A stretch of DNA of 64,000 nucleotides from Candidatus Methanophagales archaeon (GCA_030602585.1 JAUVZJ010000005.1:973-64972); one strand, 5' to 3'. Counted from the stretch's first letter, positions 7,904-45,873 are shown. Notes: generated by a model from the letters alone, not told the origin. Made by a program: numbers and translations.

Positions 7904-8830
7904 ATGGAAATGATAATAAACTCTATAATTCGTGCGCTCGAGCTTTGGATATGTGTGCTTCCTTTTACGATCGTTGGTATATTGTTAGCAAGTATTGCCA
8001 TTGAATTCAGAATATTTAATCGATTGTTTCCAGTGCTAAAACCGATATTGCAACGAGCACATTTTAGTCCAGGGTCAGGACTTGCGTTTATAACGGCATT
8101 TGGCTCGCCAATCGCAGCCGTAGCGATGGTCGCTGAACTTTATGCTGAGAAAAAAATAGACCAAAAGGAGGCTTTGTTAGTGACCGTAGCAACTTGGTTT
8201 CCGCAGACAATTTATGAAACCATCGCTTATATCTTCCCTATAATACCATTGCTCGGAATGGTTGGTATTGCATATATATTCTTATTTGTGTTGAATGGAA
8301 TAATAGTAGCAATATTAATGTTTATTATTGGTAGAGCCTTGCTAACCGAGAAGAACTACGAATTTGTTAGGGATAATGAAAAGATAGCCGTTAAAGCAGC
8401 ACTTAAAAGAAGTGTAAAGAGTTCGATAAATCTTTTAAAACGACTTATGATTGTAGGGCTTCCAGTGAGCATTGTAGCAATTGCTCTTATTAATATAGGA
8501 ATATTTGATGCATTGCCTAAATATCTTGGTTGGATGCCGCTACCTCCTGAGGCACTGGCTATAATACCGTTGAAAATTGCAAATCCCATGGCGGCATATA
8601 TCACACTTGCAGATTTAATGAAGACAGGAATTTTGGATTTTAAGTTAGCACTGTTGACTTTACTGATTGCTAGTGCTTTTGTGAGTTTACGATACATTTT
8701 TGCACACAGGCTACCGTATTATTTTGGAATTTTTGGTCCTGTAGTAGGTGTGAAGATAACATCGGTGAGTGCAACATTACGGCTCGGATTGACTGGTTTG
8801 ATGATTTTTGCCTTGATATTGTTTTTATGA
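7904..8830 (+). CDS. polytopic membrane protein (8-9 TM), paralog of 39172-40143, possibly nucleoside-recognition (Gate)-like
   Basis: Hydrophobic profile. It shares architecture and motifs with the ORF between cobN and chlID. The family assignment is tentative. Confidence 0.4.
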   Translation: MEMIINSIIRALELWICVLPFTIVGILLASIAIEFRIFNRLFPVLKPILQRAHFSPGSGLAFITAFGSPIAAVAMVAELYAEKKIDQKEALLVTVATWFPQTIYETIAYIFPIIPLLGMVGIAYIFLFVLNGIIVAILMFIIGRALLTEKNYEFVRDNEKIAVKAALKRSVKSSINLLKRLMIVGLPVSIVAIALINIGIFDALPKYLGWMPLPPEALAIIPLKIANPMAAYITLADLMKTGILDFKLALLTLLIASAFVSLRYIFAHRLPYYFGIFGPVVGVKITSVSATLRLGLTGLMIFALILFL

Positions 8831-28681: not shown

Positions 28682-28794
28682 GGATGTGGGTAATGAAAGA
28701 CATTCTGAAGTTGGGGGTGTTAGATTTAAGAAAAGGATACTGATTTAAAGTTTAATTATAGGAAACACCAAACAATTTTGTGAAGTGAAGACCT

Positions 28795-29049: not shown

Positions 29050-29254
29050 TTCATCGCCTCTGATCCAGTTAGCCAAGATTGGGCAGCTAAACCTATTGAA
29101 ACACTTTTTTAATGAGATAGGTGTTTTAATAAGGGCGAAAGACGAGGGAAAGATAGCAAGTTTAGGAGAGATCTTAGAGAAGCTAAAAGAAACTGGATTC
29201 TGGATAAGTGATGATTTATACACCAAGATTCTGAGAGAAGGCGGGGAGTTATGA
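29030..29254 (+). CDS. DUF3368 (PIN-like) toxin remnant, internally deleted
   Basis: The N-terminus VVSNSSPLIQLAKIGQLNLL has Asn in place of the first catalytic Asp and is joined directly to the C-terminal LIRAKDEGKIASLGEILEKLKETGFWISDDLY segment. The middle ~80 aa are missing. Confidence 0.5.
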   Translation: MPKVVSNSSPLIQLAKIGQLNLLKHFFNEIGVLIRAKDEGKIASLGEILEKLKETGFWISDDLYTKILREGGEL

Positions 29255-29259
29255 GTATA

Positions 29260-29575
29260 TTGATGATGGTAATATAGATGATTCTTGCATGATGCTATGT
29301 TCTGTGGAGTGCCCTCCCAGAAAAGGATATGAAAAATAATATTATGTAACACTTGATTTATCACAAAATCGATAAATGAATTTTCTCTATAATATCAAAA
29401 CCGAAAATATTTTTATTAATTATAACAAGAATTTGTTAATATCTTACATGAAGGACAAGATAAAAACGAAAATATGGGCGATGAAAAGCGGTGGGTGAGG
29501 GAAGGGATATGGCTAAATAGTGCCACTTACGTGATGCAATATGTGGCGAAGGTGGAAGAAGAAGGAGAAAAAGGA
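29260..29575 (+). promoter_or_regulatory. conserved ~320-bp upstream leader (copy 1) with palindrome TTTATCA-N6-GATAAA and TATA-like box
   Basis: About 80% identical to 33489-33815. Palindrome at 29357-29376, ttttattaattataa at 29411-29425. Precedes the binding-protein gene 29771. Confidence 0.5.
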
Positions 29576-29588
29576 GGTGATGTGAAAA

Positions 29589-29774
29589 ATGAGTGCGAAG
29601 CAGTTTGATCAAACTTTCTTAAAGTTTGTTGCGAAACGTTTTGAAGAATGTTTGAAGGATTATGAACACGACCCAAAGGAGTGCACGCCAGAGCAGATAA
29701 GAGAGTGCCATGGCGATATTGAAGTTGAACGACACCCTTGCGGAGCGGGAAAAATGGGGGGTAATGTGAAATGA
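29589..29774 (+). CDS. small Cys4/His protein, hypothetical (possible metal-binding)
   Basis: 61 aa, EEC..KEC..RECHGD..HPC. The stop overlaps the binding-protein start (ATGA). Confidence 0.35.
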   Translation: MSAKQFDQTFLKFVAKRFEECLKDYEHDPKECTPEQIRECHGDIEVERHPCGAGKMGGNVK

Positions 29775-30997
29775 AAACGAAAAGGATAACATCTATTGTA
29801 TTGGTAATGGTGCTTCTTGCATCTGCGTTGCCATTGGTGGTTATGCCCGCGGCTGCACAACAAGCAGGAATACCATGTGATGATGGGAATAATGAATTAA
29901 CGAGAGATGAACTTGTGAATGCAATTCTTCCATACATGCTCGGTGAAGGCTCTCACACTTTAGATGAGGTTAGAGATGCTGCGTGGGTATATGCATATTG
30001 GGATGGAAAGCCGGAAGAGATTACGGATTCTGCTGGTAGAGAGGTGACGATATGCAGACCGGTAGAAAGAATAATTCCTATGTCCTCGTGGTCCTATGAA
30101 CCCATTTGGATCCTCGAAGCACAGGATAAAGTGGTGGGTGTGACCTCAACTCTAAAAGAAAGCGCTGGTGCATGGCTTCTAGGAATCCAGGATAAGCCAA
30201 CCGTTGGCACCTACAAAGAGCTTGATTACGAAAAGGTACTCGAAGTTAACCCACAGATTGTAATCACCGGTTCAAACAAGGCAGAAGAAATTGCAGAAAA
30301 ACTAGCGCCTGCTGGTATAACAGTAGTTGCAATGAGCTTCAGAAGTCAAGAAAAATTCGATAACGATCTTAAAATCCTCGCGAAAATACTGGGGAAAGAT
30401 GAAAGAGCAAGAGAATTCATTTCGTGGAGACAGAATTGTATAGACGAGATCAAAGAAAGAACAGAGGAGTTGGAACCAGAAGAGAAGATAAAGGTGTATG
30501 GTGAAAGTAACGCACGATTCTGGCTTACTCCCACGAAAGATTCGGGCTTCCACGGAGTAATAACAACGGCAGGCGGTAACAACATCGCAGGTGACCTCCC
30601 TGGTAAATATGTCGATGTTGAATCGGAGTGGGTTGTTAATGAAAGTCCTGAGGTAATAGTTATTGCAGCAACAATGAGTGATTGGATTCCTGGTCCCGGT
30701 CTCGATTATTTTGCAGATGAATCTGATATCGCCGACACGAAACAATACTTAGAAGAAACTTACAATCGAACAGGTCTAATGGAGACGGACGCAGCAAAAG
30801 AGGGTCGTGTTTATTTGCTCCATGGCTACGTAGCGGAAGGAGCATGCCGTTCCTTCGTCGGAGTTGGCTATTGCGCCAAGTGGTTCTACCCAGAACAATT
30901 TGAGGACTTGGAACCAGAGGAATATCACAGGGAATACTTTGAAGAATGGCTCGACATGGAATACAAAGGAGTCTGGGCTTATCCGCCAGTGAGTTAG
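29771..30997 (+). CDS. ABC substrate-binding protein, FecB/BtuF-like paralog
   Basis: ITDSAGREVTICRPVERIIP...ILEAQDKVVGVT. Nearly colinear with 25152-26369. Confidence 0.75.
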   Translation: MKTKRITSIVLVMVLLASALPLVVMPAAAQQAGIPCDDGNNELTRDELVNAILPYMLGEGSHTLDEVRDAAWVYAYWDGKPEEITDSAGREVTICRPVERIIPMSSWSYEPIWILEAQDKVVGVTSTLKESAGAWLLGIQDKPTVGTYKELDYEKVLEVNPQIVITGSNKAEEIAEKLAPAGITVVAMSFRSQEKFDNDLKILAKILGKDERAREFISWRQNCIDEIKERTEELEPEEKIKVYGESNARFWLTPTKDSGFHGVITTAGGNNIAGDLPGKYVDVESEWVVNESPEVIVIAATMSDWIPGPGLDYFADESDIADTKQYLEETYNRTGLMETDAAKEGRVYLLHGYVAEGACRSFVGVGYCAKWFYPEQFEDLEPEEYHREYFEEWLDMEYKGVWAYPPVS

Positions 30998-31132
30998 ACG
31001 CAGGGAAAGGTCGCAAACCAAAATCGTAAAAGTAGGGAGGAGGGAGAAAGCGTTCCTTCTCCATTCATTTTTTCCCCCGGAAGAATTTGTGGAGTTCTAT
31101 CTTAAGCCTGAACGGAAAATGAAGAGATGTTA

Positions 31133-31343
31133 ATGATACTCTTTTCTATGTGGTGTCTTCTTCCCTCTCAATCTCTATCCAGAGCAAATTCGGCTTTTAG
31201 TAGAACTCGTTCCTCTCACCCAGGCGATTGAAGGTCTGCGAGGGAATGGCATTCTCTTATTCCAAGTCGGGTATGTCTGGATAACAGCGATAATAGCTGT
31301 TGTTTTAGCCATAGTAATCTTTAAAAGAAAGATGGTAATCTGA
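31133..31343 (+). pseudogene. duplicated 3' fragment of the ABC-2 permease gene
   Basis: >90% nucleotide identity to 28467-28681, including the stop and downstream aggatgtg..aatgaaaga. Confidence 0.75.
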
Positions 31344-31632
31344 GGATGTGAATAATGAAAGATTGGAGCGAAGAGTGGAAGAAGAGACGTTCTGAGGCTG
31401 GATGGAAGGGGAATCGCAAAAGAAAAGCTTCTCCTGTTTTACTCGTGATTATGATATATCATATAAATCATTGCTAAAGCAGCTCGTCCATCTGGACATG
31501 GATTCTGAGGAAAGGGTGCGTGATTATTTGAAAAAGAGTAACAGACTCCTTAAAAAGAACGGAGAACTTTGGGTAAGGTGTAAATATAGGGATGCACTGA
31601 TTTGGTATCGGAAAGAATGACGAGAAGTAAAG

Positions 31633-33489: not shown

Positions 33490-33815
33490 GATTGATGATA
33501 GTAATATAAATGACTTTGTATGATGCTATGTTCTGGAATGCCCTCCCGGAAAAGGATATGAAAAATAATATTATGTAACACCTAATTTATCACAAAATTG
33601 ATAAATGATTTTTCTCTATAACACCAAAACCGAAAATTTTTTTATTAATTATAATAAAAATCTGTTAATGTCTTACATAGAGTTAAGATAAAGAGGGAAG
33701 ATAGGAGGGATAGGGAATAAAAAAGGAATGGCTAAGAGGAGAGAGATGGGTATATGGCGCTCCTTGCGTGATGCGATATGGGGCGAAGGTGAAAGAAGAA
33801 GGGGGGCGATAAAAA
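33489..33815 (+). promoter_or_regulatory. conserved ~320-bp upstream leader (copy 2)
   Basis: Palindrome tttatcacaaaattgataaa at 33586-33605, TATA-like tttttattaattataa ~33639-33655. Precedes the binding-protein gene 33909. Confidence 0.5.
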
Positions 33816-33908
33816 GATGAGAAAAGGAAAGGGAATAGTAGAAAGCGTGAATACACTTTCTTTTAGAAAAAGAACCTGTGCTAAGAAAACAATAGGAGGT
33901 GGTGAGGA

Positions 33909-35152
33909 ATGAGGATGGTATTATCTATTGTATTGGTGATGGTGCTTCTTGCATCTGCGGTGCCGACGGCGGTTGTGCCGGCGGCTGCAAATCCAGCAGG
34001 AATATCTAGAGAATACAAGGAACTATTCGAAGGAGACAACGAACTGACGAGGGACGAACTTGTAGAGGCAATAGTTTCTCATATGCTCGAAGAAGGAAGT
34101 GCTTTACAAATAGACGAGTTGAGAGATGCTGCTCATGTCTATGTATATTGGGACGGGGAGCCGAAGACGATTACGGAATTTGCTAATCCCCCAAGAACGG
34201 TGACGATATACAAGCCGATAAAGAGGATAGTTCCCCTGACTACCGAAGCTACTGAAGCAATACGCACACTTGGAGCTACCGATAAAGTAGTCGGCGTTAG
34301 TAAATATGTCATAGGGGATGAGTTGTTCTACCCGGAATTTAGTGATTATCCTAACCTTGATAGCCCATGGACAGACCTCGGAGTACTAGCAGAACGATTA
34401 TTAGAGTGCAATTCCGATGTGGTCCTCACGTATACAAAATATCCTACACCACCTGCTCTTGAAGAGAAGCTCGAAGGCACCGGCATCACAGTGATTCGTT
34501 TTGATTTCAGCAAGCCTTCAAATTTTGTTGAAGAGGTAAACAACCTTGGTTACATCCTCGAGAAGGAGGATGAAGCCAACGAATTCATAGATTTTTACAG
34601 TAACTATATGGACGAAATAAGTGATGCGGTAGAAACGGGAGATAAACCAAAAGTTTACCTCGAAGCTGACTTCGGGAGTGGTCATGAGAAGTACTATACC
34701 TGCGGTGAAGGGCATGGGCATCATGAACTGATTGTATTAGCTGGTGGTAATAATATCTTTGCTGATGTTAGCTATGGCGGAGAAATAGGTGTAGAAGATG
34801 TGATGGATCGAGACCCTGAGATTATAATCAAGTATAAATGGCCTGCTGGTGGTTTTGATGGGGATATAGAAGAGTTGAAAGCGATAAGAGAAGAGATATT
34901 GGGGCGAGAAGAGTTGCAGGATGAACCCGCGGTGAAGAATGAGACTGTATATGTATTCACATGGTATAACGTGGAGGTGCAAGGTATTTTCTGGGCATGG
35001 GCTATCTAGCGAGGTGGTTCCATCCGGGATTAGATATTGACCCACAGGGAATTTATCAAAAATATCTAACAGACTTCCAAGGACTGAATATTGATTTGGA
35101 TAATGCTGCACTCGTGTATCCCGAAAAGCCAGTTTGTGACGAACCAGCATGA
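33909..35152 (+). pseudogene. FecB/BtuF-like substrate-binding protein with a frameshift near 34990
   Basis: ORF 33909-35009 ends ...VQGIFWAWAI. The conserved C-terminus GYLARWFHPGLDIDPQGIYQKYLTDF...ALVYPE continues in the +2 frame to the stop at 35150-35152. Confidence 0.65.
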
Positions 35153-35313: not shown

Positions 35314-36906
35314 ATGAGGGTAACAGCAATAACATGGGGAAGTGATATGGCATTGCTCGTCAATGCATGCAAGGAGCTTGGAATAGAGTTAGACGCGTGG
35401 TCTACACATGATGTGGAAGAAGAGAAGGAGCGAAGGGAGTGCATAAAATCTTTTGAGCAGGCGGACATCGTCCTCTTACATCCGTCAAATGAGGAATATT
35501 GGGATGAGATAGTTGAGAGACGGAATAAAGATATGCCAACGATCTCTTTTGGGCATGATTCATCCTTCTGGTGGCTTTCAAACGTTCCCTTAGAGGTTGT
35601 TGCAACGGTCAATGCCTACCATGTATACGGAGGGGCAGAGAACATAACGAATATGCTCAGGTACATCGGAAAAGAGGTCTTAGGTCTGGATTATAAATAC
35701 GAGAATCCAAAGGAGACGATGTGGCAGGGAATATATCATCCGGATGCCGAAACTGCTTTCGAGAGCATAGAGGACTATTTCGCATGGCATAAACCTTCGC
35801 ACAAACACAAAGTTGGCATTCTCTTCTTTCGTACATATTGGGCAAACAGAGACCTTGAGATCGTGAATGCACTAATTCGTGAATTGGAAAACGAGTTTGA
35901 TGTAATTCCAGCCTTCTGCTATGGACTGGGTGATAAAGAATTAGGTGCTAAATCGAGCGGTGAAGTCATTGAAGCATTCTTCATTAACAGGATTGATGCA
36001 CTCATAAACCTTCAATCTGTCTTTCATGCTGGAAGCAATGAAGGCTCTGTCAATGCACTGAAAAAACTCGATGTCCCGGTATTCCACCCACTAATGGCAT
36101 ACTACAATACAGAAGAAGAATGGAGAGCGGATACTCAAGGAATAAGCAGCATGGAGGTTGGCTGGAGTGTTGCGATGCCAGAATTAGAGGGCGTAATCGA
36201 ACCGATAATTATCGGAGCATCAAGAAGAGATAGCGATAATGATTTTGAGCGACATACGCAGATAGATGAAAGGGCGAAAAAGATTGTGAATAGGGTGAAG
36301 AGATGGATAGAGCTAAAAGATAAACCTAAATCCAAAAGAAGAGTTGCATTTATCCTCCATAACACTCCCTGTGCAAGCGTTGAGGCAACAGTAGGAAGCG
36401 GTTCACATCTTGATACCCTGGAGAGTGTAGCAAGGATACTGAAACAGATGAAAGATGCAGGATATTCGGTTGATACGCCTAAGGACGGCGAAGAGCTTGT
36501 AGAGACCATCATGGATCGCAAAGCAATTTCTGAGTTCCGATGGACAACTGTGGATGAAATCGTAAGTAAAGGTGGTGCACTTGCGCTGATAAGCAAGGCG
36601 GATTATGAAATGTGGTTTGATACCTTTGACCAAAGAGTGAAGGAAAGGACGTGTGAAGCATGGGGAAATCCGCCTGGCGAAGAAAAGAATGGTGTCCCCG
36701 CAGCAATGGTTTACAATGGTAAAATCGTGGTAACAGGCGTTCGATATGGAAACGCAGTGGTGTGCGTTCAGCCGAAGCGAGGCTGTGCTGGTTCAAGATG
36801 CGATGGGCAGGTCTGCAAGATACTTCACGACCCTGAAGTGCCTCCTCCTCATCAATACCTCGCAAAACCTATCATTACCTGGAAACTACCTTCGGTGCAG
36901 ACGTGA
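35314..36906 (+). CDS. cobN: CobN/ChlH-family chelatase large subunit, N-terminal part (gene split by frameshift)
   Basis: CobN-like throughout, ending ...PPPHQYLAK then out of frame. An A4 run at 36864-36867 is the likely indel site. Confidence 0.7.
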   Translation: MRVTAITWGSDMALLVNACKELGIELDAWSTHDVEEEKERRECIKSFEQADIVLLHPSNEEYWDEIVERRNKDMPTISFGHDSSFWWLSNVPLEVVATVNAYHVYGGAENITNMLRYIGKEVLGLDYKYENPKETMWQGIYHPDAETAFESIEDYFAWHKPSHKHKVGILFFRTYWANRDLEIVNALIRELENEFDVIPAFCYGLGDKELGAKSSGEVIEAFFINRIDALINLQSVFHAGSNEGSVNALKKLDVPVFHPLMAYYNTEEEWRADTQGISSMEVGWSVAMPELEGVIEPIIIGASRRDSDNDFERHTQIDERAKKIVNRVKRWIELKDKPKSKRRVAFILHNTPCASVEATVGSGSHLDTLESVARILKQMKDAGYSVDTPKDGEELVETIMDRKAISEFRWTTVDEIVSKGGALALISKADYEMWFDTFDQRVKERTCEAWGNPPGEEKNGVPAAMVYNGKIVVTGVRYGNAVVCVQPKRGCAGSRCDGQVCKILHDPEVPPPHQYLAKPIITWKLPSVQT

Positions 36907-39074
36907 TTATCCATGTAGGAACGCATGGAAACCTGGAATTTTTGCCTGGTAAATCTGTTGCACTTTCAGAAAGCTGTTACCCCGATATAGCTATCGGAAA
37001 TCTGCCTCATCTATACATATATAATTCTGATAATCCCCCGGAAGGGACAATTGCAAAGAGAAGAAGTTATGCAACGCTCATAGACCACATGCAAACCGTT
37101 ATGACAGAAAGTGGTTTGTATGGTGACTTAAAGGAGCTTGAAGACCTTATCGCAGAATATAACAAGACAAAAACATCGGATAAGGCAAGGGCACATGCCC
37201 TGGAGCACATTATTATTGATTTGATAAGGAAAACGAAACTATCAGAAGAGATAAAGCTTGATAAAAAGTTAGAGAGTGGGCATTCCTTTGAGAAAATAAT
37301 AGACATTGCACATGAGGCTATCACTCGCATATACAACACGCAGATTCCTGATGGTATGCATATCTTCGGTGAAGTTCCAGAAGGTGATAAGAAGGTTGAG
37401 TTCATCAACTCGATACTGAGACATGATTCAGAGCTAAGGAAATTGATTTTCGAGCTTATGGGACTCGATATTCAGCCTTCAGAGGCGGAAAGCGAGTTTT
37501 TAGCCGAGGTGGATAGTATTGCAAAGGAATTTATTTCCGCTTTCTTGGCTGAAGAAGAGCATTTAGAAGCAGCGAAGGGGATATTGGGCGATAGATTGAA
37601 GATAAAAGATGAGAATAAGCTTTCTCTGATGAGAGAAAAGGTAATGGATATTTCTTCAAGGATAGAAGCATCGGATGAGATGGGAAGTTTGTTTCACGGA
37701 TTCGATGCAGGATATATCGAACCAGGACCTTCGGGGCTCATAACAAGGGGTAAGCCAGAGATACTACCAACAGGCAGGAACTTTTATTCCCTCGACCCTT
37801 TCAAGATTCCAACAAAGGCTGCATGGGAGATTGGTAAGCGACTTGCGGATGGCGTGATAAGGAAATATGAAGAGGAGAACGAAAAGCTTCCCGAAAACAT
37901 CGCGATGTACTGGATGGCATCCGATATCATGTGGTCAGATGGAGAGCAGTTCGCACAGATATTGCATCTAATCGGCGTAGAGCCTGTCTGGAAAGATGGA
38001 AGGGTAAAAGGATACCGGATAATTCCTTTGGAAGAGCTCGGTCGCCCCAGAATAGATGTCACGGTAAGAGTGAGTGGGATTACGAGAGATTGCTTTTACA
38101 ATTGCATCGAACTTTTAGACGAGGCGATACATGAGGTTGCAATGCTTGACGAGCCCATGGAAAAGAACTATTTGAGAAAGCATGTATCGGCATTGGGGAA
38201 CGTGCGTGAAAATACAAATGAAAATGGGACTGAATTTGCGCGTATATTCGCAAGTAAGCTTGGAACTTACGGGAATGGTGTAAATTTAGCGGTATATGCA
38301 TCGGCATGGAAAGAGGAGAAGGATTTGTCGGATGTGTTTGTGCATTGGAACGGGTATGCCTACGGGAAAAACAATTTTGGTGTTGAAGCGCATGATAGTT
38401 TTGTATCACAGCTTAAAACCGTTGATTTGACTTTCAATAAGACGGTTACAGATGAATACGACCTGTGCGGCTGTTGTTGCTACTTTGGAACGCACGGTGG
38501 ACTCACAACTGCTGCACGAGAGATCTCTGGACACGATGTTTCAGCATATTATGGCGATACGAGAGACCAGAATAAGATAGAAGTAAGAAGCCTTGCAGAC
38601 GAGATGAGAAGAATTGTTCGTTCCAAGTTACTAAATCCAAAGTGGATAGAAGGGATGAAACGTCATGGATACAAGGGTGCAGGGGACATATCAAAACGAA
38701 TAGGAAGAGTTTACGGTTGGGAAGCGACAACGCAGGAGGTAGACGACTGGATATTTGATGACATTGCAAGGACGTTCGTTTTAGATAAAGAAATGAGAGA
38801 GTTCTTTGAGGAGACTAATCCATGGGCGCTTGAGGAGATTGGAAGGAGGTTGTTGGAAGCTTATGAGCGCGGATTATGGGATGCAGACGAAGAAGTGATT
38901 GAAGGATTGAAGAGCGCATACCTTGAGATGGAAGGGTGGATAGAAGAGAAGATGGGCGATGCGAAAGGAGATTTTCAAGGAGGGGCGATAGATGTGATGA
39001 CGATGGAGGATGTCGAGGCATTGGCGGCTAAGATGAAAGACAAGCAGAAGGAGTGGAAAAAGTCGCTTCTTTAA
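36903..39074 (+). CDS. cobN: CobN/ChlH-family chelatase large subunit, C-terminal part
   Basis: The +2 frame from ~36866 reads KTYHYLETTFGADVIIHVGTHGNLEFLPGK, the CobN signature. It continues for 723 aa. Confidence 0.7.
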   Translation: MIIHVGTHGNLEFLPGKSVALSESCYPDIAIGNLPHLYIYNSDNPPEGTIAKRRSYATLIDHMQTVMTESGLYGDLKELEDLIAEYNKTKTSDKARAHALEHIIIDLIRKTKLSEEIKLDKKLESGHSFEKIIDIAHEAITRIYNTQIPDGMHIFGEVPEGDKKVEFINSILRHDSELRKLIFELMGLDIQPSEAESEFLAEVDSIAKEFISAFLAEEEHLEAAKGILGDRLKIKDENKLSLMREKVMDISSRIEASDEMGSLFHGFDAGYIEPGPSGLITRGKPEILPTGRNFYSLDPFKIPTKAAWEIGKRLADGVIRKYEEENEKLPENIAMYWMASDIMWSDGEQFAQILHLIGVEPVWKDGRVKGYRIIPLEELGRPRIDVTVRVSGITRDCFYNCIELLDEAIHEVAMLDEPMEKNYLRKHVSALGNVRENTNENGTEFARIFASKLGTYGNGVNLAVYASAWKEEKDLSDVFVHWNGYAYGKNNFGVEAHDSFVSQLKTVDLTFNKTVTDEYDLCGCCCYFGTHGGLTTAAREISGHDVSAYYGDTRDQNKIEVRSLADEMRRIVRSKLLNPKWIEGMKRHGYKGAGDISKRIGRVYGWEATTQEVDDWIFDDIARTFVLDKEMREFFEETNPWALEEIGRRLLEAYERGLWDADEEVIEGLKSAYLEMEGWIEEKMGDAKGDFQGGAIDVMTMEDVEALAAKMKDKQKEWKKSLL

Positions 39075-39171
39075 GGAGGTCGGGTGAAGAGGTGAAATTA
39101 GACTCTGCTAATAAAAATCGTAATCCACCCATCCGAGGTGTAAACAGAAAAACATATAAACGCCTTAGAAA

Positions 39172-40143
39172 ATGATTAGCTATATTATACACACTTCCCT
39201 GATATATGCCCTTTACTGGATGGCAAAAATTGTTCCTGTCATTGCCATAGGCATCCTTGCAACGAGTTTTGCAGTTAACCTCGGGCTGATGAAAAAGTTT
39301 GACAGGCTAATCAAACCTCTTTCCAGTAAAGCGAATCTCAGCACGCTATCGGCTCTCTCGGTGGTAACGTGCACGTTTAGCCCTACTGCTGGTTATTCCA
39401 TGCTATCTGATGGACTGAACGAGAAAATTATTCCCGAACGCGAGGTCATCGCAACCACGGTAATCAGTTCTTTTCCAAGCAGCTTCTCTCACCTCTTCAC
39501 GTTTTACATACCTGTGGTGATTCCTATTCTCGGCATCACTACAGGGTCAATTTATGTGTGCCTGATGGGGCTTGTAGCATTCTTGAAAACGTGTTTTGGA
39601 ATATTTCTTGCACGAATATGGCTAAAAGACGCTAATGTTTTTTCATCCAGACCGCAATTATCCACCACGCATGACAATGCTCCAATTGAGGACAAAAAAC
39701 ACGAATTGAATAAAAGCGCCAGAAGCACATACAAAATGCTCAAAAGGATTGTGCCCACGATGTTCATCACCCTGTTTCTGGTATCCGTGGCGATGGAACT
39801 GAACTTGTTCGATTCATTTTCTACAATTTTGGAACCGTTCACAAACATGTTGGAATTAGAAAGCGAAGTCGTTCTAATCAGCGCAACTGAGATTGTGAAC
39901 ACTTATTCCGGGTTAATCCTTGCAGGCAGCCTTATGGGTAAAGGATTGATTTCGACAAAAGGGGTGCTAATCGCTCTATTACTGGGCAATGTGGTATCAT
40001 TCTCTACAAAATTTGTAAAACATTCATTACCCTTGCACGTATCGCTGTTTGGTCCTAAATTGGGAAGCAAGACGGTTGCGGTAAATGCTGCGACAACGCT
40101 TGCCATAGATGTGCTATTCATAATAGCATTACTGGTAATCTAA
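39172..40143 (+). CDS. polytopic membrane protein, paralog of 7904-8830
   Basis: Same length class and hydrophobic pattern, with shared motifs around the first loop. It sits between cobN and chlID. Confidence 0.4.
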   Translation: MISYIIHTSLIYALYWMAKIVPVIAIGILATSFAVNLGLMKKFDRLIKPLSSKANLSTLSALSVVTCTFSPTAGYSMLSDGLNEKIIPEREVIATTVISSFPSSFSHLFTFYIPVVIPILGITTGSIYVCLMGLVAFLKTCFGIFLARIWLKDANVFSSRPQLSTTHDNAPIEDKKHELNKSARSTYKMLKRIVPTMFITLFLVSVAMELNLFDSFSTILEPFTNMLELESEVVLISATEIVNTYSGLILAGSLMGKGLISTKGVLIALLLGNVVSFSTKFVKHSLPLHVSLFGPKLGSKTVAVNAATTLAIDVLFIIALLVI

Positions 40144-40323
40144 AATTATTTTCTTACAAAATTCTTTTATTTTATGCTTTTCGTATCTCAATATATATAA
40201 ATATATATGCTTTTAATAAAACCAAAAATCTTTTAATATGATTATGCACATCAAATTAAATGTTATTATATTATCTCAAATGGTTAAAAACAAAGAAGGA
40301 AAAAAAGGAAAGGGTGAGAAAAA

Positions 40324-42399
40324 ATGACATACCACATTAGAAGGGAGATATTGCCATTTACAGCAATTGTAGGGCAGGAGAAGATGAAGAAGGCGCTTAT
40401 TTTGAACGCTATTAACCCGCGTATAGGCGGAGTGCTTATAAGGGGCGAGAAAGGAACGGCGAAGTCCACTGCCGTTCGAGCTCTTGCAGAACTGTTACCA
40501 GAAATCGAGGTGGTTAACGGCTGTCCGTTCAATTGCAATCCTTATGACGAGGGGGAGATGTGCGACCTATGCTATGCGGAAAAAACGAATGGTGAAAATC
40601 TGGAAGCGGCGAAGCGAAGGATGTGGGTCATAGACCTTCCGTTAGGTGCTACCGAGGACAGGGTCGTGGGTTCAATAGACGTTGAAAAGGCAATAAAACA
40701 GGGAATAAAGGCGCTGGAGCCGGGGATATTGGCTGCTGCAAATAGGGGTATTCTCTATATTGACGAGGTAAACCTTCTTGATGACCACGTTGCAGACGTC
40801 ATTTTAGATTCGGCTGCGATGTCAATAAACGTTGTCGAGCGAGAAGGTGTCTCGGTTTCTCATCCATCCAAGTTCATCTTGGTGGGAACGATGAACCCTG
40901 AGGAAGGCGAGCTCAGACCTCAACTTCTGGATAGATTTGGTCTTCAAGCGAGTGTAGAAAGTATAGACGATGCAGAGAAAAGGGTAGAAATAGTGAAGCT
41001 GGTAGAAGGTTTTGAAAGGGACCCGGGAGAGTTCGAAGAGCGATTCGAGGAAAAACAAAAAGAGTTGAGAGAGAAAATTGTGCAAGCGAAACAAATAGTT
41101 AATGAGGTGGAGATTAGCGATGATTTACTGAATCTAACTGCAGATACCTGCATAAAACTCGGCGTCAGGACACACAGAGCTGAAATCGTTATAACCAGAG
41201 CGGCAAAAACGATTGCTGCATTTGATAGCAGAAAGAAAGTCACTTTTGAGGACATAAAAGAGGCGATGGAATTAGCACTTCCGCACAGAATGCGCAGAAA
41301 GCCTTTTGACCCACCAAGTTTGGATACTGAAAAACTCGATGATATGATGTCGGACACAAAAGAGCAGCATAAAGGTGAGAAACAAGAGAATGAGCAAGAG
41401 CAAAGGAAAGAACACGAACATAAACACACCCCCACAAATCCAGAAAGTGAAGATGCTAACAACAATGATGCTGTGAAAGAAACAGAACCACAGAAGGAGT
41501 TTGTTTTTGACATAGGCGACCCGATTGATACCGGAGTAGTAAGGCAAAAACAAAAGAAAGACAGAACATATCGCAGGAAGATTTCCGGAAGAAGAATACC
41601 CACACTCTCTCTTCGTAATAACGGGAAGTATGTGCGCTGTGGATTCCCGAAGGGAGAAATAAAGGACGTTGCACTTGATGCTACGATACGTGCAGCGGCA
41701 CCTTACCAGAAAGAGAGAATGGTTGATTCAGACTTAGCTGTTGTTATCAAAACTCAAGATATTCGAGAGAAGATTCGTGTAGGAAAGGTGTCAACAGCAA
41801 CGATGTTTGTTGTGGATGCCTCTGGTTCAATGGGTGCGAATCGAAGGATGGAGAGTGCAAAAGGTGCTGTTCTCTCTTTATTACTGGATTCGTATCAACA
41901 AAGAGACAAAGTTGGAATGGTTGCGTTTAGAGGTGATCAGGCAGATGTTTTGCTTCCTCTATGTTCAAGCGTAGATTTAGCATATAAAAGCTTGAAGGAA
42001 CTCCCAACTGGCGGAAGAACACCTCTATCAGCAGGTCTGGAAAGGGGATTTAATCTTCTGATGAATGAAAAGCAGAAGGACGAAGGAGCGATACCCGTGC
42101 TGGTGTTAATATCTGACGGTCGTGCAAATGTTTCATCTTCAAATAAAGATATTAAAGTGGAGTTGTTAGCGCTCGCTGAGCAGGCGCGTGCTAAGGGTAT
42201 ACATGTGATTGTGATTGATACCGAAGTAATTAATAAATCGTTCATACAAATGCAGCTTGGATATTGCAGAGATATAGCGAGCTATTCCGGGGGAAAATAT
42301 TATTCCATCGTTGATTTGACATCACAAGCAGTGCATGATATTGTGATTCAGGAGCGAGAGCGAAGTTTATCGAATGATTTGCAGGCTGTTTTGGGATGA
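40324..42399 (+). CDS. Mg-chelatase-type ChlI/ChlD fusion: AAA+ ATPase plus C-terminal von Willebrand A (MIDAS) domain
   Basis: Walker [10 protein letters not shown], ChlI core, acidic linker, and vWA domain [10 protein letters not shown]...LISDGRAN. Confidence 0.8.
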
Positions 42400-43493
42400 A
42401 AATGACGTCAAGCACTGAGACCATATCAGGAACGAGAACAAAGAGCGCCGAAATAAAAGAGCAATACAAAAAGTTTATCGGAAGGAAAATTCTATTTATC
42501 CTTTTTTCCCTCATCCTAATTTTTATTATCGCAGGCATAGCTGCAACACTTGGCTCTTATCCTATCACAGTCACTGAGGTCTACTCAATAATATGGCAGG
42601 GTCTATTTCAAAATCCGGAAACGACAAAAGAGATTGTCGTCTGGAACTTGAGATTGCCACGCATCATAATGGGTATTTTAGCTGGCATAGGGCTTGCAAT
42701 TGCAGGCACGATGATGCAAGGTATTTTAAGAAACCCACTTGCAAGCCCCTTTACGCTGGGAATCGCATCAGGTGCGGGGTTTGGTGCGGCTCTTGCTATC
42801 CTTTTAGGTGCGGGTATTATCGCTGGTGAGACTGGTAAGTATCTCATCATAGTAAATGCGTTTGCCTTTTCTCTCATTCCCACATTTGTTATCATAGGAT
42901 TGACCCGTTACAAAAGAGCTACGCCTGAGACAATGATTCTCGCTGGTATCGCAATGTTATATATCTTTAGCGCGGCGACGACTTTATTAATGTACTTTGC
43001 CGAATCAGAAGCGGTAAAAGCAGCATATTTCTGGATGGTTGGCAGTCTTGGAAAAGCTTCATGGGATGCCATCCTCCCAGTATCTATCATGCTTGCAGGT
43101 TGTGTTCCCCTGCTTCTGTGGAAGTCATGGGATGTCAACGTAATGGGTGCTGGAGATGAAACTGCAAAAAGCTTGGGCGTAAATGTCGAACGAAGCAGAA
43201 TCCTTATATTGGTTATTGCTTCTTTGATGAGCGCAGGCATTGTTTGCTTCACCGGAACCATTGGATTCATAGGATTGGTTGCCCCACACATGTGCCGCAT
43301 GGTTATCGGTGGTGATAACCGGTTTTTAATTCCTGCTTCCGGTTTTTTTGGTGCCGCCCTTCTACTTGGGGCTGATACCCTCGCAAGAACAATCATAGCA
43401 CCTGTAATCCTCCCGGTAGGAGTCTTGACATCCTTCATGGGAGGTCCTTTATTCCTTTACTTGATAATGAGAAAAAGGAGGGAGTTTTGGTGA
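42396..43493 (+). CDS. btuC: FecCD/BtuC-family ABC permease (intact) with ~30-aa N-terminal extension
   Basis: 10 TM FecCD fold ([24 protein letters not shown]). The N-terminus [25 protein letters not shown] is the sequence recurring as stubs elsewhere. Confidence 0.8.
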
Positions 43494-43494
43494 A

Positions 43495-44295
43495 ATGAAA
43501 CTAAAAGTAAAAGAGGTAGAGTTCAGCTATGCAAGTGTGCCTATACTCAAGGATATATGTATAGAGCTTGCCGCATCGGAGATGTTAGGCGTGGTGGGTC
43601 CAAATGGCGCAGGGAAATCTACGCTGATCAGATGTATAGACAGGATTTTAAAGCCTCAGCGCGGAATCATACTGCTGGATGAGCGTGATATAAAAGATAT
43701 GCGTCTAATGGAACTCGCCAAAAAAATAGGGTATATCCCACAAAGCACTTCTCAGATCTTTCCTGCTACGGTCTTCGATACCGTTCTCATGGGCAGACGT
43801 CCTCATATTGGGTGGCGAAGCAGCGAAAAAGATACTGAAATGGTTTTAGAGATGCTGCAAATGCTGAACATCGAAGAGTTCGCCATGCGGGACATTAACG
43901 AACTCAGTGGTGGTCAACAGCAGAAAGTGTTTATTGCACGCGCACTCACGCAAGAGCCTGATGTCCTTTTGTTAGACGAGCCCACTTCTAACCTTGACAT
44001 AAAACACCAGCTTGAAGTAATGGACATCATAAAAAACATCGTGATAGAAAAGCAAATCTCGGCGATTATGGCTATCCATGACTTGAATTTAGCTTCAAGA
44101 TACGCCGATAGGATACTAATGATGAATAGCGGTAAGATTTTTGCCGCAGGCAACCCTGTTTCTGTCCTTACACCGGCTAATATAAAATGGGTTTATGGTG
44201 TGGAGGCTGAGGTGAACAATAACAACGGAAGACCGTATATCGTGCCTATAAGACCTGTAAGAAAAATGGAGGTAGAAATGGGGTGTGAGGTGTGA
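43495..44295 (+). CDS. btuD: BtuD/FecE-family ABC ATPase
   Basis: Walker A GPNGAGKST, signature LSGGQQQK, Walker B LLLDEPTSNLD. Confidence 0.8.
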   Translation: MKLKVKEVEFSYASVPILKDICIELAASEMLGVVGPNGAGKSTLIRCIDRILKPQRGIILLDERDIKDMRLMELAKKIGYIPQSTSQIFPATVFDTVLMGRRPHIGWRSSEKDTEMVLEMLQMLNIEEFAMRDINELSGGQQQKVFIARALTQEPDVLLLDEPTSNLDIKHQLEVMDIIKNIVIEKQISAIMAIHDLNLASRYADRILMMNSGKIFAAGNPVSVLTPANIKWVYGVEAEVNNNNGRPYIVPIRPVRKMEVEMGCEV

Positions 44296-44298
44296 GGT

Positions 44299-44412
44299 GT
44301 GAGTGGGATAAAGAGGTTTGAGGATTTGAAGGTGTGGCAGAAGAGCCATGAACTTGTGCTCGAAGTTTATAAAGTTACATAGCAATTTCCAAATGAAGAA
44401 AAGTTTGGATAA
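44299..44412 (+). pseudogene. degenerate four-helix-bundle (TIGR02436-like) gene remnant
   Basis: (GTG) SGIKRFEDLKVWQKSHELVLEVYKVT then an in-frame TAG, then QFPNEEKFG and further stops. Flanked by (GGTGTGA)3 and cctcaaacctc repeats. Confidence 0.55.
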
Positions 44413-44550
44413 GTGAAGAAATAGGAAGAATGTTAAATGGACTAATAAAATCACTCTCAAACCGAAAACGTGAGGAGGTGAAGACGTGAGGTGTGAGAAT
44501 CAGAAGGCAGGACTCTGGCTCCTCAAACCTCACCACTCAAACCTAAAAAA

Positions 44551-45429
44551 ATGAGACAAATAGCATTTTATGGCAAAGGAGGCGTTGGAAAATCCACAGT
44601 AAGCTCAAACATCGCGGCGGCATTGGCTGAGCATGGGGTCGCCGTGATGATGATTGGCTGCGATCCAAAGCACGACTGCACGAGGAACTTGCGAGGCGAT
44701 GCTGAGATACCAACTATCCTTGACGTATCACGTGATAAAGGTATAGAGCGGTTGGGTCTTGAAGGGCTGGTAGAAGGAAATAAAATCGAGCTGGATGAAG
44801 TCATCTACAAAGGTTACAGGGGTGTTTACTGTGCAGAGTGTGGAGGCCCAAGACCGGGTGTTGGATGCGCAGGTAGAGGAGTTATTGTTGCGATAGATTT
44901 ACTCAAGAGGCTGAATGCCTTCGAAGAACTAAAGCCGGACGTGGTGATATACGACGTGCCGGGAGATGTAGTATGTGGTGGTTTTGCGATGCCCCTGCGG
45001 AGAGGTTTGGCAGACGAGGTCTATATTGTAACATCAGTGGATTATCTTGCTCTTTACGCTGCAAACAACATTTGCAAAGGTATCAGCGAGTTCGCAACCA
45101 AAGGAGGGTCTCCATTAGGCGGTATTGTCTATAATGTTAGAGGCATGCTTGACGATGAGGCTGTCGTCCACGACTTCGCAGAAAAGGTCAAGTCGCAAGT
45201 TATTGGGCACGTCCCTAACGCACATCAGATCGCAGAAGCTGAGATTGCGGGTAATACAGTGATTGAATATGACCCCGATAGCGATATTGCCGATTTGTTC
45301 CGGGAGTTAGCCCTGGGAATCTACACTAACACGCAGACTTCAGTTCCTGAGCCATTACCACCGGAAGAGATGACGAGAATAGGTCAGGTAATCAGGAAGA
45401 GGACAAAAGAGAAGTGGCAGCAGCGATAA
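44551..45429 (+). CDS. NifH/BchL/CfbC-family Fe-S ATPase (nitrogenase iron protein-like)
   Basis: P-loop [15 protein letters not shown], and both cluster cysteines ([23 protein letters not shown]). There is no adjacent NifD-like partner. Confidence 0.75.
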
Positions 45430-45448: not shown

Positions 45449-45487
45449 GTCATGATGCATGATGCATGATGCATGATACAAGATACA
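45449..45487. repeat. (CATGATG)4 tandem repeat plus left arm of the inverted repeat CAAGATACAGG flanking the four-helix-bundle gene
   Basis: catgatgcatgatgcatgatgcatgatacaagatacagg. The right arm at 45874-45900 reads cctgtatcttgcatcctgtatcttg (two units). Confidence 0.7.
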
Positions 45488-45492
45488 GGAGA

Positions 45493-45873
45493 ATGAGGGC
45501 ATTTCAGACATATAAGGATTTGGAAATATATCAGTTAAGTCATGATTTGGCAATTGAAATTCATAAGGTAAGCCTTAGCTTGCCAAAATTCGAGTTATAC
45601 GAAGAAGGGAGCCAACTGAGGAGATCTGCTAAGGCTATTCCTGTGAATATCGTTGAGGGATTTGGTCGCCGCCGATACAAAAATGATTTTATCCGATTTC
45701 TTACATTTGCTTTGGCATCATGCGATGAAACAAAAGAGCATCTTAAAATTTTGTATGAGACAGAGGCACTCAATGATAACGATATTTTTGATAGCTTTAT
45801 CTTGAGATATGAAGAATTAGGACGAAAAATCCACAATTTCATTAAAGCTGTGGAATCTGGTCATAAATCATAA
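45493..45873 (+). CDS. four-helix-bundle protein (TIGR02436, 23S rRNA IVS protein-like)
   Basis: [25 protein letters not shown]...IPVNIVEG matches the family consensus. ORF track 45466 starts within the flanking repeat. The stop abuts the right inverted repeat. Confidence 0.65.

Follow-up and report, generated by a model that had tools for sequence, protein, structure and literature searches.

Gene content of the locus

The DNA analyzed here, referred to as the window, is a 64,000-nucleotide stretch of a Candidatus Methanophagales (ANME-1) contig (GCA_030602585.1, JAUVZJ010000005.1:973-64972), the first 46 kb of which make up a single uptake island that holds two nik/opp operons together with four PBP2 genes and ABC-2 exporters. 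The genes named in an initial annotation of this DNA were all recovered in place on the + strand, and their identities agree with Pfam and NCBIfam profile matches. They are best read as two units lying side by side: unit 1 (33.9-44.3 kb), with genes for a binding protein, a CobN-type subunit, a Gate-family protein, a ChlI-ChlD fusion and an ABC importer, and unit 2 (44.55-45.9 kb), a separate transcription unit with a NifH-like gene and a four-helix-bundle gene.

Unit 1 starts further upstream than originally delimited, with a gene for a class III substrate-binding protein (Peripla_BP_2, PF01497, 90.3 bits; 33909..35152, +) that has a signal/anchor N-terminus and finds its nearest solved chains among iron/siderophore-type binding proteins (E 8e-13). 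A frameshift near 34990 ends the ORF of this gene at 35009, and the last 47 codons run in another frame to 35152, tblastn with the paralogue at 29771-30997 placing the frame switch at residue 356. Upstream, a BRE/TATA-like motif, AAAACCGAAAAT (33626..33637, +), is followed by a T/A-rich stretch and is common to several island operons; it sits in a 178-nt segment (D3), a second copy of which precedes the paralogous binding-protein gene. The same motif search found AAAACCAAAAAT (40218..40229, +) 95 nt 5' of chlID. Matched 8 times against 0.89 expected in shuffles, the motif is shared by the nik, PBP and chlID units, where it may act as a promoter.

The FecCD/BtuC-type permease of the type II ABC importer (btuC, 42396..43493, +; PF01032, 305.8 bits) overlaps chlID by 4 nt and is followed by the importer ABC ATPase (btuD, 43495..44295, +; PF00005, 120 bits). 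The permease reaches none of the substrate-specific NCBIfam cut-offs (best BtuC, 224 < 334), and the best NCBIfam matches of the ATPase are also sub-cut-off (heme ATPase, 238 < 261; corrinoid ATPase, 235 < 537). The importer has the composition of NiuBDE (CeuE/FecDE, Helicobacter), BtuCD-F and HmuTUV, namely a class III binding protein, a FecCD permease and an ABC ATPase, but exceeds no substrate-specific cut-off and is accompanied in ANME loci by multiple binding-protein paralogues, up to six or seven per importer. Among these systems, NiuBDE, built from a class III PBP and FecDE, shows that the architecture can transport Ni(II)-(His)2 and Co (PMC5140060).

The chelatase subunits

The cobN-type gene for the class-I chelatase large subunit (35314..39074, +; PF02514, 385 + 876 bits) is not a single ORF, and its two parts (35314-36906 and 36903-39074, 530 + 723 aa) cover positions 2-413 and 427-1089 of the profile. 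The split is due to a 2-nt (AA) insertion in an A-run (36864-36867), 13 codons 5' of the catalytic HVGTHG motif. The split allele is also present in the Logan assembly SRR14872667, and an intact allele of 1252 aa occurs in the sister sample SRR14872670 (L002), scoring 1809 bits against NF004646 (cut-off 1468). With its binding-protein gene and cobN both frameshifted, unit 1 is decaying in the window genome, and may thus do nothing in this strain.

Among solved chains, M. tuberculosis CobN (7c6o) is nearest to the window protein (603 bits, against 525 for ChlH and 390 for HmuS); its translation retains HVGTHG and has no membrane anchor at the N-terminus. Ungapped HMMER alignments to 7c6o, 9uk9/9fpc and 4zhj-type chains place a CGCCC cluster (38466..38480, +) in an active-site loop where solved CobNs have ADSDD and ChlH has TDVSH. 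The residue opposite the catalytic His is accordingly Cys in the window CobN, Asp in solved CobNs and His in ChlH; its HmuS counterpart would be His-1209, as located through the motif published in PMC12583661. The GCC of the cluster is kept in 7/7 ANME CobN orthologues having sequence at that position. Because CGCCC replaces the acidic or His residues opposite the catalytic His, it argues against a standard Co or Mg chelatase; such a Cys cluster would suit Ni, Co, Fe or Zn equally.

The ChlI-ChlD fusion (chlID, 40324..42399, +; TIGR02442, 798 bits, cut-off 779.45) comprises AAA+, AAA-lid and vWA domains, with Pfam matches to AAA_lid_2, VWA_2 and Mg_chelatase. Its translation contains an AAA+ motor with Walker motifs (Walker B, ILYIDE), an acidic linker and the vWA MIDAS motif DASGS.

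As in CobN-CobST and ChlH-ChlI-ChlD, the cluster thus pairs a full-length CobN/ChlH-type subunit, carrying the HxGxHG catalytic motif of the superfamily, with an AAA+ and vWA/MIDAS motor, here as one fusion, and its subunits pass their NCBIfam cut-offs, CobN only as the intact allele. Unlike in those systems, the window cluster has no cob or bch neighbours, its cobN is frameshifted, and in ANME the chelatase is always encoded alongside a type II ABC importer and a carrier of the Gate family. In the HmuS/BtuS systems of Bacteroidota, too, a CobN homologue is encoded with a tetrapyrrole/chelate uptake system in strict anaerobes, and the partner transporter has Gate-type domains (FeoB there, a Gate-only protein in the window). 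HmuS, however, is membrane-bound and NADH-dependent, with a Met-rich insertion, head-domain heme ligands and no ChlID partner (PMC12583661), whereas the sequence of the window CobN points to a soluble protein, a ChlID partner is encoded with it, and its score against HmuS is far below that against CobN.

The Gate-family membrane protein

The polytopic membrane protein encoded between cobN and chlID (39172..40143, +; 323 aa) belongs to the Gate family (PF07670, 49.2 bits, cut-off 29.6), and is an elevator-type (CNT/ArsB-like) carrier fold without a GTPase domain, although no sequence match to any solved chain was obtained. FeoB contains Gate domains, and its membrane domain shares the Pfam Gate motif with the window protein. 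Compared with elevator-type carriers of the ion-transporter superfamily (CNT nucleoside transporters, ArsB, TRAP-M, AbgT), the window protein stands apart in its small size and in a family of about 190 clusters that is almost all ANME. The paralogue previously reported at 7904..8830 (+) is genuine (BLASTP, 26% identity over the full length, E 4e-28), and the cobN and nik/opp loci do share this membrane family. By its Pfam neighbours, the paralogue ends an operon of nik/opp type in which SAM methyltransferase genes are interspersed; it is part of the surrounding context and lies outside the cluster.

Conservation of the module

Conservation was assessed in 35 ANME-type loci retrieved through the Gate protein alone, genes being counted within the available flank. 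PBP2/BtuC/BtuD genes occur in 20/35 of them and CobN/ChlID in 12/35, either kind being present in 24/35; ABC-2 exporters accompany the module in nine. The core set (binding protein, CobN, Gate, ChlID, BtuC and BtuD) is found in ANME-1, -2 and -3 with its genes shuffled: the window has CobN-Gate-ChlID-BtuC-BtuD, an ANME-3 locus (L046) has PBP-ChlID-CobN-BtuC-BtuD-Gate, and two further loci (L010/L015) show other rearrangements. The proposal that CobN, the membrane protein, ChlID and BtuCD form a conserved module therefore holds, the arrangement not being unique to this genome, and its recurrence across the three groups marks the core as a real, uncharacterised module. As regards clustering beyond chance, the core qualifies and the NifH-like gene does not, as it occurs in only 2/35 Gate loci, from different paralogue groups.

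The NifH-like gene and the relic spacer

Unit 2 opens with a NifH-like Fe protein gene (44551..45429, +; Fer4_NifH, 328 bits) of the ANME-1 group 'H_A', the best CfbC candidate. Its product has the P-loop GKGGVGKS and cluster ligands in GVGCAGRG and VVCGGFAMP, and passes NF009701 (453 bits > 350). With CfbC it shares the NifH fold, the P-loop and both [4Fe-4S] cysteine ligands, but it exceeds the curated CfbC model in length by some 30 residues and falls below the cut-off of that model (339 < 402). In line with the initial annotation, which called it NifH-like, it does not qualify as a genuine nitrogenase NifH (TIGR01287, 386.5 < 394.35) and has no nif partners, and NifD/K-like genes were not found in the window; cfbA/B/D/E genes were likewise not found there. 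The nearest solved chain is MarH of methylthio-alkane reductase (PDB 9FMG, 276 bits), likewise a nitrogenase-like Fe protein of group IV that works with a D/K-type partner, but bacterial and tied to sulfur salvage, no marB/D/K being present at the window locus. Trees group the family with a NifH-like gene of Methanocaldococcus that lies between fsr and argF and that we take to be the MJ0879/NflH orthologue, and a rough NJ tree places the window protein in a clade apart from a representative passing the CfbC cut-off.

Orthologues 78–93% identical to the NifH-like protein sit elsewhere: between cfbB and cfbA, beside lonB (four cases), or in H/D/K operons. In L054 the orthologue (89% identical) lies between cfbB (609 > 560) and cfbA (137 > 120), with cfbE (278 > 250) and a CbiMQO-type, possibly NikMNQO-like, transporter downstream. 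Others, 80-83% identical, are embedded in nitrogenase-like (NFL) operons with non-CfbD NifD/K-like genes, so that CfbC may not be the only, or main, role of the protein. Most likely, the window gene encodes the Fe protein of CfbC type of ANME-1, the usual enzyme of coenzyme F430 synthesis rather than a reductase devoted to the chelatase, and the gene for its catalytic partner lies elsewhere.

The junction between btuD and the NifH-like gene (44227..44550, +) is a relic. Its 255-bp spacer holds a decayed second copy of a four-helix-bundle gene, with the interrupted translation RFEDLKVWQKSHELVLEVYKVT*. By blastn the junction is colinear with two parts of loci L060/L071, the spacer that precedes a NifD-like gene and a four-helix-bundle gene; the 1.6-kb NifD-like gene itself is missing from the window, as are about 200 bp of the bundle gene. 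Against L060, 44227-44296 matches 864-934 (82%), 44282-44410 matches 2561-2691 (79%), and 44412-45415 matches 2889-3904 (78%). The spacer is thus the remnant of a 'D1–4HB–H' nitrogenase-like operon from which the NifD-like gene was deleted.

Proposed function and alternatives

Unit 1 may be a module for the uptake of Ni/Co chelates and for (de)metalation driven by ATP, lying beside a CfbC-type Fe protein unit, a reading whose chances we judge to be about even. As a module conserved in ANME, it would procure a transition metal in chelated form, with nickel or cobalt the likeliest. The class III binding protein and the FecCD/ABC (type II) importer would carry the metal chelate into the cytoplasm, where the CobN-type subunit, with its thiolate-lined active site, and the ChlI-ChlD motor might drive ATP-dependent metal transfer into a tetrapyrrole. 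We would guess that this machine inserts Ni or Co at times of free-metal scarcity, backing up with high affinity the small CfbA/CbiX chelatase, which needs no ATP. The Gate-family carrier could pass the small partner of the reaction, be it the emptied ligand or the ion, through the membrane. A Ni/Co role has in its favour the nik/opp content of the uptake island, the motif common to the nik, PBP and chlID units, the cargo of NiuBDE, and the example of M. marburgensis, which makes CobN1 and a NikR only when Ni is limiting (PMC12350162). Counting against this reading, the best, sub-threshold matches of the importer are heme, corrinoid and siderophore systems, which would suit tetrapyrrole import.

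That likeness would also fit metal harvest in reverse, in which the importer takes in a metallo-tetrapyrrole (heme, a corrinoid, F430 or sedimentary Ni-porphyrin), CobN-ChlID strips the metal, by analogy with HmuS acting on heme, and Gate exports the emptied ring or ligand. The CobN homologues HmuS and BtuS dechelate heme anaerobically (PMC12583661; PMC10846266), in the close relative L004 a second CobN paralogue, bearing the HmuS-like motif LDHYYEFFGG, lies directly upstream, ABC-2 exporters occur at 9/35 loci, and a late Co chelatase would be needless in strict anaerobes using CbiX/CfbA. We nonetheless consider this unlikely, given that the window CobN is far nearer to CobN/ChlH than to HmuS, has no N-terminal anchor and pairs with a ChlID ATPase, CobN/ChlH using ATP-dependent accessory proteins and HmuS being described as NADH-dependent. 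A standard B12 synthesis or salvage locus, with CobN-ChlID as late-insertion cobaltochelatase and BtuCD-F importing corrinoids, is very improbable, even if the NCBIfam names are cobaltochelatase subunit CobN (NF004646) and putative cobaltochelatase (TIGR02442), the nearest solved chain is a CobN, and BtuC/BtuD models are among the best importer matches. To our knowledge, strict anaerobes insert cobalt early and do not make hydrogenobyrinic acid a,c-diamide, the CobN substrate. Furthermore, CGCCC stands in place of the acidic DSDD loop, no cob/cbi gene other than cobN-chlID was found in the window or the 35 related loci, no Rfam family, including the cobalamin riboswitch, is present, and published surveys see no association of archaeal CobN paralogues with cob genes and describe their function as unclear (PMC12583661).

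The model raised by the initial annotation would join the chelatase, importer, membrane protein and NifH-like ATPase in one metalate-then-reduce tetrapyrrole pathway, likened to ChlHID plus BchL or CfbA plus CfbCD; the Fe protein would then work with a NifD/K-like partner encoded elsewhere or since lost. Some observations favour it: a NifD-like gene once lay between btuD and the NifH-like gene, and ANME-1 NFL H/D/K operons are repeatedly joined to importer, Gate and ABC-2 genes of the kind seen in the window, adjoining BtuC/BtuD/PBP2 in 14/34 loci and Gate or its paralogue in 5/34. L028 is a single tight string (PBP2-BtuC-D-K-Gate), two NifH-like genes precede CobN-Gate-ChlID in L006, and the Methanocaldococcus Gate gene is directly upstream of its NifH-like gene. 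Against it, CobN or ChlID occurs in 0/34 NFL loci within the flank, NifH-like genes are rare among the Gate loci (2/35), and the NifH-like gene adjoins the chelatase cluster only in the window and in L004, whose NifH-like protein is 93% identical. An unbiased sample of six orthologue contexts comprised four lonB, one cfb cluster and one NFL, and the NifH-like gene has its own spacer without the promoter motif common to other units. The chelatase-plus-reductase idea is thus weakly supported, and we think the single pathway quite unlikely.

Within the preferred two-unit reading, the CfbC-type Fe protein and the four-helix-bundle gene would have been stranded beside btuD by the NifD-like gene deletion, the Fe protein probably serving partners encoded elsewhere: CfbD for coenzyme F430, and possibly others. 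The four-helix-bundle gene (23S rRNA IVS-type; 45466..45873, +; 135 aa; PF05635, 98.8 bits; TIGR02436) starts 37 nt beyond the end of the NifH-like gene; L004 retains both genes as a pair, and in P0206 they are called as one fused protein.

Organization of the Module and of the Uptake Island

A class-I chelatase whose active site is altered is encoded, coupled with a type II importer and a new accessory carrier, on the plus strand of the window between 33.9 and 44.3 kb. The series opens with the gene of a class III binding protein (33909-35152), in which the frame shifts near the 3' end. Next come cobN (35314-39074, split by an AA insertion), the gene for a Gate-family membrane protein of 323 aa (39172-40143), a gene fusing ChlI and ChlD (40324-42399), a FecCD/BtuC permease gene overlapping chlID by 4 nt (42396-43493) and an ABC ATPase gene (43495-44295). 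A 255-bp spacer separates the latter from a NifH-like gene (44551-45429, plus strand), behind which lie a four-helix-bundle gene of the 23S-IVS type (45466-45873, plus strand) and, on the opposite strand, tRNA-Pro and housekeeping genes. The closest relatives of every gene examined come from ANME-1 (Methanophagales) assemblies, and the protein set of the window is also present in two Logan assemblies.

The first 46 kb form a single uptake island, comprising two nik/opp-type operons with interspersed SAM methyltransferase genes, a paralogue of the Gate gene (7904-8830), two ABC-2 exporter pairs, three further genes for binding proteins and an IS transposase, besides segmental duplications and a number of gene fragments. 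The methyltransferase genes (1917-2699, 4697-5452) and methyltransferase gene fragments (2709-3149, 7415-7861) lie among nikA/B/C-type genes (1917-7861), and an equivalent methyltransferase-NikA-NikB-NikC string plus a Gate gene is found in a Methanosarcinaceae MAG (L033). The spacer before the second nikA (8831-9381) holds an N-terminal fragment of BtuC and a C-terminal fragment of NikC, and the IS (DDE transposase, minus strand) adjoins truncated ABC ATPase and ABC-2 permease genes (17943-22189). Four paralogous binding-protein genes (23949-31007, 33534-34233) are segmentally duplicated in their coding and upstream regions, in blocks 74-87% identical and about 4.1-4.6 kb apart, which shows that the receptors for one importer have recently expanded in tandem; a 224-nt stretch is also duplicated at 95% identity (28477-28700 and 31139-31362). 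At the start of the island (86-865), a P-loop ATPase of the CbiA/ArsA type (259 aa) is encoded that weakly resembles NifH and matches no NCBIfam model; it is possibly a metal-insertion accessory ATPase, and in another retrieved locus (L015) a gene of this family precedes the Gate gene.

The 12-mer AAAACCGAAAAT is matched eight times in the window with at most one mismatch (0.89 expected). Sites lie at 9269, 22479 (minus strand), 29397, 29462, 33626 and 40218, and six matches fall in spacers upstream of island operons, among them the second nik operon, the binding-protein genes and chlID. The element looks like a common BRE/TATA promoter or operator. No such promoter-like motif precedes the NifH-like gene, and an Rfam scan of the window returned no riboswitch or other family.

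A 2-nt (AA) insertion, located within the run 36864-36867 and 13 codons 5' of the catalytic HVGTHG, breaks the reading frame of cobN. The split allele also occurs in Logan SRR14872667, and an intact allele of 1252 aa, scoring 1809 bits on NCBIfam NF004646 (cut-off 1468), in SRR14872670, a sister sample. Programmed frameshifting was rejected in view of the plain insertion and the intact allele; either a loss-of-function polymorphism or a variant of the assembly is favoured. In the binding-protein gene, the frame switches about 16 codons before the apparent stop and reading continues to 35152, so the module is damaged at two points in this strain; its genes are intact in relatives.

Conservation of the Gene Set

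The membrane protein alone was used as bait, with one genome per species, and families were mapped by tblastn and all-against-all clustering. Across 35 ANME-type loci from ANME-1, ANME-2c, ANME-3/HMMV and Methanosarcinales, many just 2-6 kb long, a Peripla_BP_2 binding protein (PBP2) or BtuC is encoded in 20, CobN or ChlID in 12, at least one of these in 24, and an ABC-2 exporter permease in nine. The chelatase-importer-membrane-protein module proposed in the initial annotation is thus borne out as a conserved, uncharacterised one, and far from being unique to this genome, the gene set recurs in ANME-1, -2c and -3. Order differs among lineages, being PBP-ChlID-CobN-BtuC-BtuD-Gate in an ANME-3 locus (L046) and Gate-ChlID, PBP and CobN, with interruptions, in another (L010); such reshuffling speaks more strongly for a functional link than frozen synteny would. 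Distant Gate homologues of Methanococcales and Archaeoglobaceae (33-45% identity) have no module neighbours. A NifH-like gene was found in only two of the 35 loci: the closest relative (L004) keeps the order of the window, with an ABC-2 pair in addition before the NifH-like gene, and L006 carries two NifH-like copies upstream of cobN.

The Chelatase

[quoted passage not shown]

Two rival readings of this enzyme were weighed. As an ordinary cobaltochelatase it would agree with its best score, 603 bits against M. tuberculosis CobN (7c6o), compared with 525 against ChlH and 390 against HmuS (9d26). However, CobN sensu stricto carries an acidic D-S-D-D loop opposite the catalytic histidine (-ADSDD- or -LDSDD- in the solved CobNs) and ChlH reads -TDVSH-, whereas in ungapped alignments the window protein reads TDEYDL-CGCCC-YFGTHGG, GCC being kept in all seven ANME orthologues with sequence covering the site. 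Moreover, neither the 64-kb window nor the 50 loci of the family map yielded a cob/cbi gene besides cobN. The other reading is dechelation by CobN-ChlID in the manner of HmuS, in which the histidine of HxG(T/A)HG is essential (PMC12583661). Against it, apart from the lower score, HmuS and BtuS have a D-H within LSLDHxxEFMGG, a motif that in a tentative alignment would place His-1209 of HmuS at the position of CGCCC, and the window CobN reads DLCGCCCYFGTHGG there, lacking the D-H. The predicted thiolate-lined metal site is unlike those of known Co or Mg chelatases, and would be compatible with Ni, Co, Fe or Zn.

In L004, the gene of a second CobN paralogue (640-4413; 28-36% identical) immediately precedes the orthologous cobN. 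The active-site loop of this paralogue, VDLDHYYEFFGG, resembles that of the HmuS family (LSLDHxxEFMGG) and has no CGCCC cluster.

The Importer and the Gate Carrier

The importer components are encoded together (PF01032, 305.8; PF00005, 120.1; PF01497, 90.3 bits), and every substrate-specific NCBIfam equivalog for B12, heme or siderophore stays below its cut-off (BtuC, 224 against 334; heme ATPase, 238 against 261; corrinoid ATPase, 235 against 537; BtuF, 39.6 against 234). Among PDB sequences, the binding protein matches only generic iron/siderophore-type chains (E 1e-12 or weaker), so no ligand can be deduced from them.

The membrane protein, left without a family name in the initial annotation, is placed by HMM in the Gate family (PF07670), with two Pfam Gate repeats in a CNT/ArsB/TRAP-like fold, no further domain and no solved chain related to it in sequence. 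FeoB is a different protein: the 323 aa found here match PF07670 only and hold no G domain. The family comprises about 190 clusters among 5.8 billion proteins, nearly all from ANME. Small organic anions, nucleosides or arsenite are what carriers with this fold transport; by analogy with these cargoes, a free ligand or small metal chelate is favoured over the bare ion as the putative substrate.

Several neighbourhoods of Gate genes deserve mention. A "tetrapyrrole methylase" beside the gene in four ANME-1 loci proved to be diphthine synthase (NCBIfam, 268 against a cut-off of 114 bits), so the tetrapyrrole connection that its name suggested was dropped. In six ANME-2-type loci (L018, L023-L026, L029), a 175-200-aa TrmO/TsaA-like protein (PF01980) is encoded between the binding-protein and Gate genes, and in several of them giant NosD/beta-helix and cohesin/dockerin surface proteins follow 3' of the Gate gene. 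A profile search with diverse Gate sequences directed at MTBMA_c10530, a Ni-induced "transporter" of Methanothermobacter encoded next to chelatase genes, gave nothing new.

Proposed Role of the Module

ANME and methanogens invest heavily in Ni (F430) and Co (corrinoids), yet the sulfidic sediments that they inhabit offer next to no free Ni or Co. Co-location, folds, the altered active site, the decay in this strain and the orthologue contexts are the observations, and beyond the family level the functions are proposed as follows. The importer would bring in a Ni or Co chelate, on the precedent of NiuBDE, a class III binding protein/FecDE system that carries Ni(II)-(His)2 and Co (PMC5140060). 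Under metal scarcity, the ATP-driven chelatase would pass the metal to a tetrapyrrole, and the Gate carrier would recycle the ligand. For such a transfer, the only physiological hint comes from M. marburgensis, which produces CobN1 and a NikR solely when Ni is limiting (PMC12350162). What the many CobN paralogues of archaea do is a recognised question (PMC12583661; PMC3087415), to which this locus gives a testable shape: a conserved gene set, a diagnostic Asp/His-to-Cys cluster replacement and an expressible intact allele. A literature search gave nothing specific on CobN with NifH in ANME, nor on ANME metallophores.

Identity of the NifH-like Gene

The NifH-like protein matches PF00142 at 328 bits, and its translation contains the P-loop and both cluster cysteines, including VVCGGFAMP. 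It passes NF009701, "nitrogenase reductase-like protein" (453 bits, cut-off 350), and falls below the CfbC model NF033200 (339.2 against 402). Eight ANME-1 NifH-like proteins score 317-339 on the CfbC model and a Methanocaldococcus one 367, and all pass NF009701. It is not a bona fide nitrogenase NifH: TIGR01287 was missed (386.5 against 394.35) and the window contains no nif genes. Among solved chains, MarH from methylthio-alkane reductase comes closest. ANME-1 nifDH have been regarded as relatives of cfbCD (PMC9539880).

Two ANME-1 groups of NifH-like proteins can be distinguished: H_A, which includes the window gene (72-95% mutual identity), and H_B, about 60% identical to H_A. Rough neighbor-joining trees place both together with a NifH-like gene of Methanocaldococcus that has fsr and argF as neighbours and which we take to be the orthologue of MJ0879/NflH (M. 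jannaschii numbering); this clade lies apart from the true NifH P0260 and also from the representative passing the CfbC model. The contexts of six H_A orthologues, picked solely on the length of their contigs, were examined: four are beside lonB (one with cobS and cfbE just downstream), one is inside a nitrogenase-like (NFL) cluster and one, on the related contig L054, is between divergent cfbB and cfbA (609 and 137 bits, cut-offs 560 and 120). On this contig, where the NifH-like gene is 89% identical to that of the window, hemA, hemB, hemD and a sirC-like (NAD_binding_7) gene lie upstream, and a CbiMQO-type transporter, which we infer to be NikMNQO-like, and cfbE (278, cut-off 250) downstream; cfbA, cfbB and cfbE all exceed curated cut-offs. 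The reading "not CfbC", suggested by the model scores, is made unsafe by this synteny and by the Methanocaldococcus gene in the clade. The window gene probably encodes the ANME-1 CfbC-type Fe protein, as judged from synteny and trees, and the NCBIfam CfbC model appears too narrow. The annotation of the ANME-1 "nitrogenase iron protein" is cleaned up accordingly as most likely CfbC.

A 40%-identical Gate homologue also lies 39 nt upstream of a NifH-like gene, on the same strand, in the chromosome of Methanocaldococcus sp. 16A (L041:9965-11794). That gene, located between fsr and argF, is probably NflH/CfbC, and the site is a second, independent Gate-CfbC neighbourhood.

Nitrogenase-like Operons and the Relic in the Spacer

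A metagenome scan with the NifD-like proteins of L053 and L028 as queries yielded 34 NFL loci. H_A orthologues (80-83%) occur there in operons of the type MT-D1-K1-H_B-MT-K2-H_A-D2, where D and K are NifD- and NifK-like and MT is a SAM methyltransferase, and in the string ABC2-D1-4HB-H_A, 4HB being the four-helix-bundle gene (L060, L071). No curated model, CfbD included, was passed by the ANME-1 D/K-like proteins. Operons of the former type (L053:3141-12369, L057:85-9158, L058:321-8860, L080, L082, L028:20-6143) have FecCD/ABC importers and as many as six or seven Peripla_BP_2 genes at their flanks, and L028 contains PBP2-BtuC-D-K-Gate as a single tight string.

By blastn, window and L060 are colinear to either side of D1: 44227-44296 corresponds to the L060 spacer upstream of D1, and 44282-44410 plus 44412-45415 to the four-helix-bundle gene of L060 with its H_A. 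What the window lacks is D1 (1.6 kb) and about 200 bp of the bundle gene. In L004, the ABC-2 pair occupies the position of the missing D1. The colinearity indicates that the NifH-like gene came to btuD within an NFL operon, since eroded. No Oxidored_nitro (NifD/K-type) gene was found in the window, as the initial annotation had stated, and this deletion accounts for the absence.

The initial annotation joined chelatase, importer and NifH-like reductase into one metal-tetrapyrrole pathway. In favour of a single chelatase-plus-NFL pathway, NFL operons adjoin BtuC, BtuD or PBP2 in 14 of the 34 loci, and Gate or its paralogue in five; against it, none of the 34 has CobN or ChlID beside the operon, and the NifH-like gene, being rare in the module loci and having orthologues beside lonB, cfb and NFL genes, does not behave as the dedicated reductase of the chelatase. 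The initial observation was therefore largely right and its interpretation partly so, the module standing and the reductase not belonging to it. The preferred reading is thus a chelatase-importer module next to a separate CfbC-type gene. A far wider reading seems improbable to us: the cysteine-lined chelatase, Gate carrier, FecCD importer with its many binding proteins, ABC-2 exporter, NFL H/D/K and SAM-methyltransferase operons might make up one variable ANME system, by which a metallo-tetrapyrrole or strong metal chelate from outside the cell (F430 breakdown products, say, or Ni-porphinoids of the sediment) would be taken up and re- or de-metalated, and its ring reduced or remodelled, with the CfbC-type Fe protein common to F430 synthesis and salvage. 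If true, this would amount to a salvage route for nickel cofactors that employs a class-I Ni (de)chelatase of a new kind. A set of uncharacterised NFL operons is also revealed, tied to the same uptake genes.

Four-helix-bundle genes (23S rRNA IVS-type) are dispersed in ANME-1 tetrapyrrole, NFL and importer clusters (window 45466-45873 and 44282-44500; L054:3047-3409; L059, L060, L063, L071, L081), often directly adjoining a NifH-like gene, and in the database protein P0206 NifH and the bundle protein are called as one 374-aa product.
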